64,000 nucleotides of DNA from Octopus sinensis (taxonomy: Eukaryota), in contig NC_042998.1 of NCBI RefSeq assembly GCF_006345805.1, positions 97,836,001 through 97,900,000 of the forward strand. Reading direction: 5' to 3'. Below are positions 9,107 to 9,876 of this stretch, in pieces; the stretch's first letter is position 1, and every line of letters starts with the position of its first letter. A program made the position numbers and the translations under genes. The notes beneath the pieces are model-generated. The model saw only the letters and a program-made list of their open reading frames with translations, was not told where the DNA came from and did no database searches.

Positions 9107-9115
<9 letters not shown>

Positions 9116-9876
9116 TTAATAAGGGTGAGAGAATTAGATACTATATCTATTCAACACCAAGTGGCCCAGTGCTTCGAGAACCTGGATTATTATAATATTT
9201 TATTATATATTATAATATTTTATACAAAAATAAATATAAGAGAATGGTCACTATGTGGCTCATTCTAGCACTAGAAAATCCCAAAGGTTGAAACCTTTTG
9301 GATTTTCTAGTGCTAGAATGAGCCACATAGTGACCATTCTCTTATATTTATTTTTGTATAAAATATTATAATATATAATAAAATATTATAATAATCCAGG
9401 TTTCTCGAAGCACTGGGCCACTTGGTGTTGAATAGATATAGTATCTAATTCTCTCACCCTTATTAATTAATTATAATTATGCTACATTTATTTCTAAATG
9501 TGGTATTTGTTTCCATGAAAATTTGGCGCGCTGTTAGTAGGGGCATTTGAATTATAACGTCGGATGTAATCAATTGAACCACACGTGTATTTATCGTTAT
9601 GGTAAAATCTGGCGTGTGATTGAGTGGATTTCATCCAGATAGTTTTGGCCGAGGAGCTACAAGTGGGTTTTTTGTAAGTAAAATTACATTTAATTCATTA
9701 ATAGCGAAACAATTGTCCCAAAATAATCTGTATTTTTGTTATTTTTTATTTGCCCTGTTCGTGTGAGCTAACAATCGTACTGACTTTCACGGGAAACATG
9801 TATTTTTGTGGTTGAAACCTTTTGGATTTTCTAGTGCTAGAATGAGCCACATAGTGACCATTCTCTTATATTTATT
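9107..9876 (+). mobile_element. Non-coding PLE-type/retrozyme-like element: 183-bp inverted copy + 524-bp unit + 67-bp direct terminal repeat
   Basis: 9107-9289 is the reverse complement of 9292-9475 (about 2 differences). 9286-9352 is repeated at 9810-9876. Both flanks are (TA)n, and the unit contains an HHR motif. Confidence 0.8.
9643..9723 (+). ncRNA. Type I hammerhead ribozyme motif (U4C variant)
   Basis: UUUUGG-CCGAGGA-GCUA-(42 nt loop)-UAGC-GAA-ACAAUUGU-C-CCAAAA: 6-bp helix I, 4-bp helix II, palindromic helix III and GUC triplet, with predicted cleavage after 9717. Confidence 0.75.

Follow-up and report, generated by a model that had tools for sequence, protein, structure and literature searches.

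A hammerhead-bearing, most likely non-autonomous Penelope-like insertion with a long 5' hairpin in an Octopus TA microsatellite

What is a 770-base insert that lies within a TA repeat, opens with a long and nearly perfect hairpin and closes by repeating the start of its own unit, and how did it come to have this form? The insert (9107-9876) was analysed within a 64-kb stretch of Octopus DNA, referred to here as the window, which is microsatellite-rich and eukaryote-like. The insert belongs to a familiar class of parasitic DNA and is most likely non-autonomous, Penelope-like and retrozyme-like. Since such an architecture is textbook for Penelope-like elements (PLEs), its hairpin comes as no surprise. 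An earlier note on this DNA had described the hairpin, the terminal repeat and the TA target and had named the partial-tandem and inverted termini as hallmarks of PLE integration; it lacked the decisive feature, a hammerhead motif within the repeated unit, which raises confidence in the identity of the insert.

Geometry and age of the insert

The insert contains just over one copy (1.13) of a 524-bp unit. Its left arm, 9107-9289 (183 bp), aligns as the reverse complement of 9292-9475 (184 bp) around a 2-nt loop (9290-9291), with two differences: a substitution (9282/9299) and a 1-nt indel near 9178/9403. Both fall in short homopolymer stretches, where they may reflect errors of sequencing. Exact inverted matching extends to 103 bp, compared to a maximum of 18 across 200 mononucleotide shuffles, and the RNA fold of 9107-9475 has z = -42.8 (0/100 shuffles). 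Positions 9286-9352 recur at 9810-9876 with 67/67 identity, which gives the period of 524; the lack of differences in this direct repeat is uninformative (P 0.48). (TA)n tracts occur at 9064-9110 and 9867-9941 (Tandem Repeats Finder). The alignment thus agrees with the earlier note on a 183-bp inverted copy with a 2-nt loop and about two differences, on a 524-bp unit followed by its first 67 bp, and on a (TA)n target, which is present on both flanks. Its term "permuted" for the 67-bp repeat is dropped here: this is a plain direct terminal repeat, and a single copy shows no permutation. Feature coordinates are collected in Table 1.

Table 1. Features of the insert and its flanks (window positions)
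Feature	Positions	Strand	Evidence or remark
Dispersed SINE-like repeat, left flank, outside the insert	8632..9063	+	the insert lies in its (TA)n tail
Left (TA)n target	9064..9110	.	last 4 bases common with outer end of inverted arm
Fold-back arm or inverted pseudo-LTR: unit positions 7-190 in inverse orientation	9107..9289	-	2 differences from 9292-9475
Fold-back junction, native 4-bp stem and 2-nt loop	9286..9295	.	unchanged at 9810-9819
Non-coding repeat unit, 524 bp, 32% GC, T-rich on +	9286..9809	+	period; ORF check
Hairpin template arm, 5' part of unit	9292..9475	+	
Predicted Y-shaped RNA fold: outer stem 9508-9559/9737-9798, arm 9562-9636, hammerhead arm 9637-9729	9508..9798	+	most helix probabilities exceed 0.9
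Type I hammerhead ribozyme motif	9642..9724	+	descriptor match; Rfam Hammerhead_1; fold z -4.26
Direct terminal repeat of first 67 bp (3' pseudo-LTR)	9810..9876	+	67/67 identical
Right (TA)n target	9867..9941	.	array call overlaps A/T-only end of insert

The inverted arm and the unit overlap at 9286-9289, the first 4 bp of the 67-bp repeat, inside a 10-bp palindrome (9286-9295). The fold-back loop has no foreign bases. The ten junction bases recur at 9810-9819 after different upstream sequence and the stem is therefore native to the unit. Stems of this kind start at 37 of the 524 unit positions (~7%); with so modest a chance figure, the use of a native stem for the fold-back is suggestive. At the outer ends, the insert stops at unit positions 190 (left) and 67 (right), which are offset by 123 nt. 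At the left outer end, 4 nt belong equally to the (TA)n tract, and mirror symmetry goes no further (9106/9476), while the right end passes via an A/T-only stretch into (TA)n. A target-site duplication is unreadable because it is located inside (TA)n.

These ends bear on whether the insert could be a DNA transposon or a tyrosine-recombinase element, that is, a MITE, a KolobokP solo repeat or a DIRS derivative. (TA) targets are common for Tc1/mariner MITEs, and 9229-9289 and 9816-9876 make an inverted pair. KolobokP repeats fall into classes of about 450 and 660 bp (PMC9587614), and the unit is intermediate in length. However, the outer terminal inverted repeats of a transposon with terminal inverted repeats, a MITE or KolobokP are absent because the outer ends are different unit positions. 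DIRS elements combine inverted terminal repeats with an internal region complementary to their joined ends (PMC8969392), whereas the internal copy here is the colinear start of the unit and does not follow that pattern. A hammerhead is not expected in any of these elements, and an origin of this type is hardly credible.

The insert is young: its near-identical arms support the suggestion, already made in the earlier note, of a recent insertion. At the octopus rate in PMC13282606, two differences in 184 bp correspond to roughly 1.5 million years, an upper bound that assumes an octopus host. The insert is also younger than the dispersed repeat on its left because it was inserted in the (TA)n tail of that repeat. 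The two halves of this repeat match six and four other places in the window, at best with 88-90% identity, and we take it to resemble an octopus-type SINE. Other copies of the 524-bp unit were not found within the window. To the right of the insert, ~90 bp lie between two (TA)n tracts (9942-10030), again with no further copy in the window; this segment presumably resembles a PLE 3' end.

A hammerhead motif in a non-coding unit

ORFs of at least 100 amino acids are absent from the unit and stops interrupt all six frames. What the unit does contain is a type I hammerhead motif. Stem I (9642-48/9718-24) has 7 bp and is extendable, the core (9649-55) differs from CUGAnGA only by U4C, stem II (9656-59/9702-05) carries a long extension and is followed by GAA at 9706-08, and stem III (9709-16) is an 8-nt palindrome; cleavage is predicted after 9717. 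The descriptor was also run on the unit after dinucleotide shuffling: of 5000 shuffles, 23 contained a relaxed match of any kind and 0 matched as well. The whole window has two relaxed matches on both strands together and only 9642-9724 has these stems. Rfam Hammerhead_1 is the top match at 25.4 bits, below the gathering score of 34 (E 1.3e-4), on a 116-nt stretch chosen post hoc. Rfam reports no hammerhead in the unit when given 5000-13000, 9292-9876 or the whole window, probably because of the long stem II, and a motif scan with a 45-nt limit between core and GAAA finds none, the actual distance being 50 nt. The motif is single, lies outside the duplicated 67 bp and is 159 nt from the 3' end of the insert. 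Its position on the + strand makes + the sense strand. U4C is a natural variant that lowers in vitro activity yet suffices in a viroid (PMC3088659). A second hammerhead-like stretch at 9780-9800 was rejected: G8/A9 are wrong, stem I is missing and the descriptor does not match.

The + strand body of the unit, with the Y-shaped fold predicted around the motif, folds better than its shuffles, with z from -4.2 to -6.2 depending on the shuffle set and 0/400 in the largest set. For 9500-9805, one shuffle set gave -6.2 and repeats gave -4.15 and -4.8 (0/400). Circular folds of the whole unit have z of -4.4 (+) and -4.0 (-), a level of -4 that 4 of 29 control windows also reach. Among 306-nt windows, -4 was reached by 2/95, both of them known DNA hairpins; this control covered 95 of 131 eligible windows with 12 shuffles each. 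The second arm of the Y (9560-9638) folds as well as the hammerhead arm (z -4.0, 1/300 shuffles) and could be an RT-binding or tertiary-contact element.

Several other identities and signals were considered for the unit and set aside. ARAGORN calls no tRNA gene in five of six settings and Rfam finds no tRNA; the sixth setting (mitochondrial, relaxed) covers the unit with a row of 13 calls that are implausible. The tRNA-related head that marks a tRNA-derived SINE is thus missing. An embedded MITE was rejected since the DNA-level inverted repeat in the body is not significant (310/500 shuffles as good). A splice-donor-like site at 9674 and an acceptor-like site at 9303 are at chance level, and a rolling-circle nonamer, with one 1-mismatch copy per strand, is taken as chance. 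An HDV-like descriptor matches neither strand. Along the hairpin, Rfam matches to miRNA families stay under the gathering score and are explained by its perfect stem. A bacterial promoter scan is not above shuffles and is irrelevant here. Similarity searches of the unit against phages and plasmids find nothing, and a 24-mer of the unit has no exact match in bacterial and archaeal genomes; neither result has any bearing on animal genomes.

Identity, integration and competing origins

An inverted 5' copy, a partial tandem, a hammerhead and a (TA)n target together make up the published architecture of PLEs, and the insert is therefore most likely a non-autonomous PLE derivative. On these sequence features we regard that identity as very probable. 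Features of non-autonomous PLEs that are present include a 67-bp pseudo-LTR (pLTR), an inverted 5' arm with a junction palindrome, the (TA)n target, and a type I hammerhead with a short palindromic stem III on the sense strand, albeit below the Rfam gathering score. The feature of autonomous PLEs, a single ORF with RT and GIY-YIG endonuclease, is absent from the insert. The PLE hallmarks named in the earlier note are thus strengthened by the hammerhead, the published pLTR layout and the known (TA)n preference. The unit matches none of the PLE fragments in the window, so there is no autonomous partner there, and a Pfam scan of three window proteins gives no PLE domain. Compared by eye with the ends of three octopus Naiad consensus sequences and part of Hydra-1_Obim, all from the supplement of PMC8557442, the unit has no resemblance to them.

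The explanation that we consider likely as a whole, as far as sequence can indicate, is that a retrozyme-like hammerhead monomer was probably reverse-transcribed by a PLE enzyme into (TA)n. A source locus would yield + RNA of more than one unit or a hammerhead-cut, circularized monomer. A PLE GIY-YIG endonuclease would nick (TA)n and the nick would prime cDNA at 9876, the inferred start of reverse transcription, which is 159 nt downstream of the predicted ribozyme cleavage site. The RT would copy 591 nt past the intact cleavage site and overshoot the unit by 67 nt; an overshoot beyond unit length needs a circle or an uncleaved multimer, and U4C would slow cleavage. The 3' end of the cDNA would then fold onto the 4-bp stem and copy 183 nt of itself, and the self-copied strand would join the other target end via 4-nt TA microhomology. 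The template proposed earlier, a circular or tandem RNA, fits a copy that crosses the predicted cleavage site and exceeds the unit by 67 nt, although a single locus does not separate a circle from an uncleaved tandem. The self-primed snap-back, also proposed earlier, is plausible but had already been suggested in the literature (PMC3846280), and the junction would look no different after priming on two strands. With just 2 nt, the loop leaves too little room for all 4 bp of the stem to form, so that the priming hairpin would be weak. Given a non-autonomous PLE identity, self-priming is the somewhat favoured route.

In two-strand priming, both target strands would be nicked, two cDNAs would be primed at unit positions 67 and 190, and their ends would be joined via 4-bp microhomology; the 123-nt offset would then be a long PLE "tail" between two initiation sites. 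Purified Anolis PLE protein cuts and extends both strands, and the tail is set by the two internal sites of the RNA at which it initiates (PMC11167929), and two RNA templates would account for the two arm differences. The location of these differences in homopolymer runs counts against this, as does a tail three to four times the published length. Two further inserts in the window speak to the question. In the first, 51467-52213(-) is a 5'-truncated PLE-type coding fragment: 51470-52141(-) resembles, with a score of 0.97, clusters that carry GIY-YIG and HTH_animal domains (GIY-YIG on 24% and HTH_animal on 48% of the members of the top cluster), and the frame reaches up to a fold-back with 34-bp arms (52132-52165/52180-52213), four mismatches and a 14-nt loop. 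Being well within coding sequence and distant from any 3' initiation site, this fold-back favours self-copying; judged on its sequence, it looks like true self-copying. In the second, another (TA)n insert at 59963-60204 has 66-bp inverted arms with four mismatches, a 56-nt spacer and outer ends ~54 nt apart, an offset that counts for two-strand priming. It is probably a truncated PLE end and fits self-priming and two-strand priming alike. On balance, two-strand priming is an unlikely but serious competitor to the self-primed route.

The same inserts bear on two origins that involve no retrotransposition at this site. A fold-back read or an amplification chimera could in principle produce near-perfect arms, and both arm differences fall in homopolymer runs, as consensus errors often do. 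The earlier note had offered a long-read fold-back artefact as its alternative. This is weak: it would take two chimeric joins because the left flank, (TA)n followed outward by an intact dispersed repeat, mirrors neither the unit nor the right flank beyond microsatellite matches, and the absence of foreign loop bases, the direct repeat and the hammerhead are left unexplained. Moreover, the fold-backs elsewhere in the window are diverged; diverged arms cannot be read artefacts and therefore the Octopus genome does make such structures, once beside PLE-type coding sequence. A sequencing or assembly artefact is thus very improbable. An origin at the DNA level, in which template-switching repair (fold-back and re-copying) would have filled a (TA)n break from a hammerhead satellite or an array of solo pLTRs with no RNA step, is improbable to a somewhat lesser degree. 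It would draw on the microhomology at the inner and left junctions and on the break-prone nature of long (TA)n tracts. Local amplification of pLTRs into tandem arrays is known (bioRxiv 2026.07.22.740005). Nevertheless, the polarity of the insert fits retrotransposition, with the fold-back at the 5' end and the hammerhead 159 nt from the 3' end, and two other PLE-type inserts within 64 kb show 5' inversions. Non-autonomous PLE integration remains the preferred reading.

The window has further repeats and remnants. A degenerate hammerhead-like core near 51289(-), within 51170-52213, also has C at position 4; it was rejected, being unsupported by Rfam. A short frame-broken remnant follows (TA)n at 62560-62830(+), and by eye its translation resembles the RT thumb of Hydra-clade PLEs. 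The 189-aa stop-free frame at 55885-56454(+) resembles, again by eye, an RT-adjacent remnant of a non-LTR retrotransposon and has no Pfam match. An element at 6135-7521 has 53-83-bp terminal inverted repeats and long imperfect internal inverted repeats (6210-6457, 6688-6893); we take it for an old Tc1/mariner derivative from its appearance. Within it, 6661-6732(-) gives a weak Rfam Hammerhead_HH9 match (E 0.97). Near-identical tandem duplications span 1119 bp at 99.6% (40790-42985) and about 900 bp at 96.7% (17790-19491); the former may be either a recent event or a product of the assembly. At 29271-34902 and 44928-48176, direct and inverted repeats (100-600 bp, 63-89% identity) are nested in clusters and probably represent old dispersed elements in both orientations.

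Significance and comparison with known systems

Mobilization of animal retrozymes by PLEs has been proposed (PMC7229834) and is supported by phylogeny, with its mechanism stated to be open (bioRxiv 2026.07.22.740005), and the formation of the inverted ends of PLEs is likewise stated to be open (PMC8557442, PMC3846280). Both questions can be tested on the copy ends of a family such as this one, which is short, young and without an ORF and in which the hammerhead serves as an internal landmark. A bolder reading, which we hold only tentatively, sees in the insert a recent member of a hitherto undescribed family of circular hammerhead RNAs of 524 nt, with the full PLE integration signature: a (TA)n target, copying beyond unit length across an uncut ribozyme site, and a self-primed hairpin. 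If true, it would be direct structural evidence for in-trans mobilization of animal retrozymes by PLEs, with a circle as template, and the ends of copies would decide between snap-back and priming on both strands. The 524-bp family may already be contained in the supplements of bioRxiv 2026.07.22.740005 or in the O. vulgaris repeat library (PMC13282606). RNA editing and small-RNA pathways would find a substrate in the nearly perfect 183-bp hairpin if it is transcribed; cruciform and dsRNA effects of the hairpin are possible.

Metazoan non-LTR retrozymes (PMC7229834; bioRxiv 10.64898/2026.07.22.740005) resemble the insert in being non-coding and low in GC, with a type I hammerhead, more than unit length and a strongly self-paired predicted RNA. 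The unit agrees with the definition of a non-LTR retrozyme unit in PMC7229834 (non-coding, type I hammerhead, GC below about 45-50%), and its 524 bp lie inside the range of 51-972 bp in bioRxiv 2026.07.22.740005 but exceed the 170-400 nt typical of invertebrates (PMC7229834). With 1.13 units and one hammerhead, the insert is not "active" under the rule of the preprint, which asks for at least two units, each with a complete hammerhead. It further differs from retrozymes in its PLE-type 5' inversion. The main texts of PMC7229834 and bioRxiv 2026.07.22.740005 make no mention of such an inversion, with "inverted" occurring in one reference title, and no retrozyme-like copy with a PLE-type inversion was found in the literature, most subscription journals aside.

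Non-autonomous Chlamys PLEs such as MRC1 (PMC8557442; PMC9977147) share with the insert the lack of an ORF, pLTRs, insertion into microsatellites and an autonomous partner. They are, however, green-algal and mostly hammerhead-less, and their partner is known by shared 3' ends, whereas the partner of the insert is putative. Naiad PLEs (PMC8557442) are alike in their (TA)n target, inverted 5' copies and presence in cephalopods, but they are without canonical hammerheads and are old remnants in cephalopods.

The closest comparison is with endonuclease-bearing (EN+) PLEs, which include Pen2a_Av and the Penelope/Poseidon, Neptune and Hydra clades. The insert differs from these in having no RT-EN ORF, a period of 524 bp instead of about 3 kb, and an outer-end offset of 123 nt compared to 30-40 nt, the length of the canonical PLE "tail", which is an optional feature (PMC8557442). 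Its hammerhead lies outside the duplicated part, carries U4C and has an unusually long stem II. Unrelated non-coding DNA can be carried between pLTRs (PMC3846280). PLE inserts as described in PMC8557442 have partial tandems (pLTR), an adjacent inverted 5' copy, a (TA)n bias and unreadable target-site duplications, and the hammerheads tabulated in its supplement are of type I, near the 3' end and with a short palindromic stem III, a feature also described in PMC6765202. The insert shares with them a pLTR, a (TA)n target, an unreadable target-site duplication and, close to its 3' end, a type I hammerhead whose stem III is palindromic. Pen2a_Av has a 181-bp inverted pLTR that overlaps its direct pLTR by 15 bp, and self-priming from junction palindromes was proposed for PLEs in 2013 (PMC3846280). 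The insert, too, has an inverted 5' copy that overlaps a direct repeat at a palindrome.
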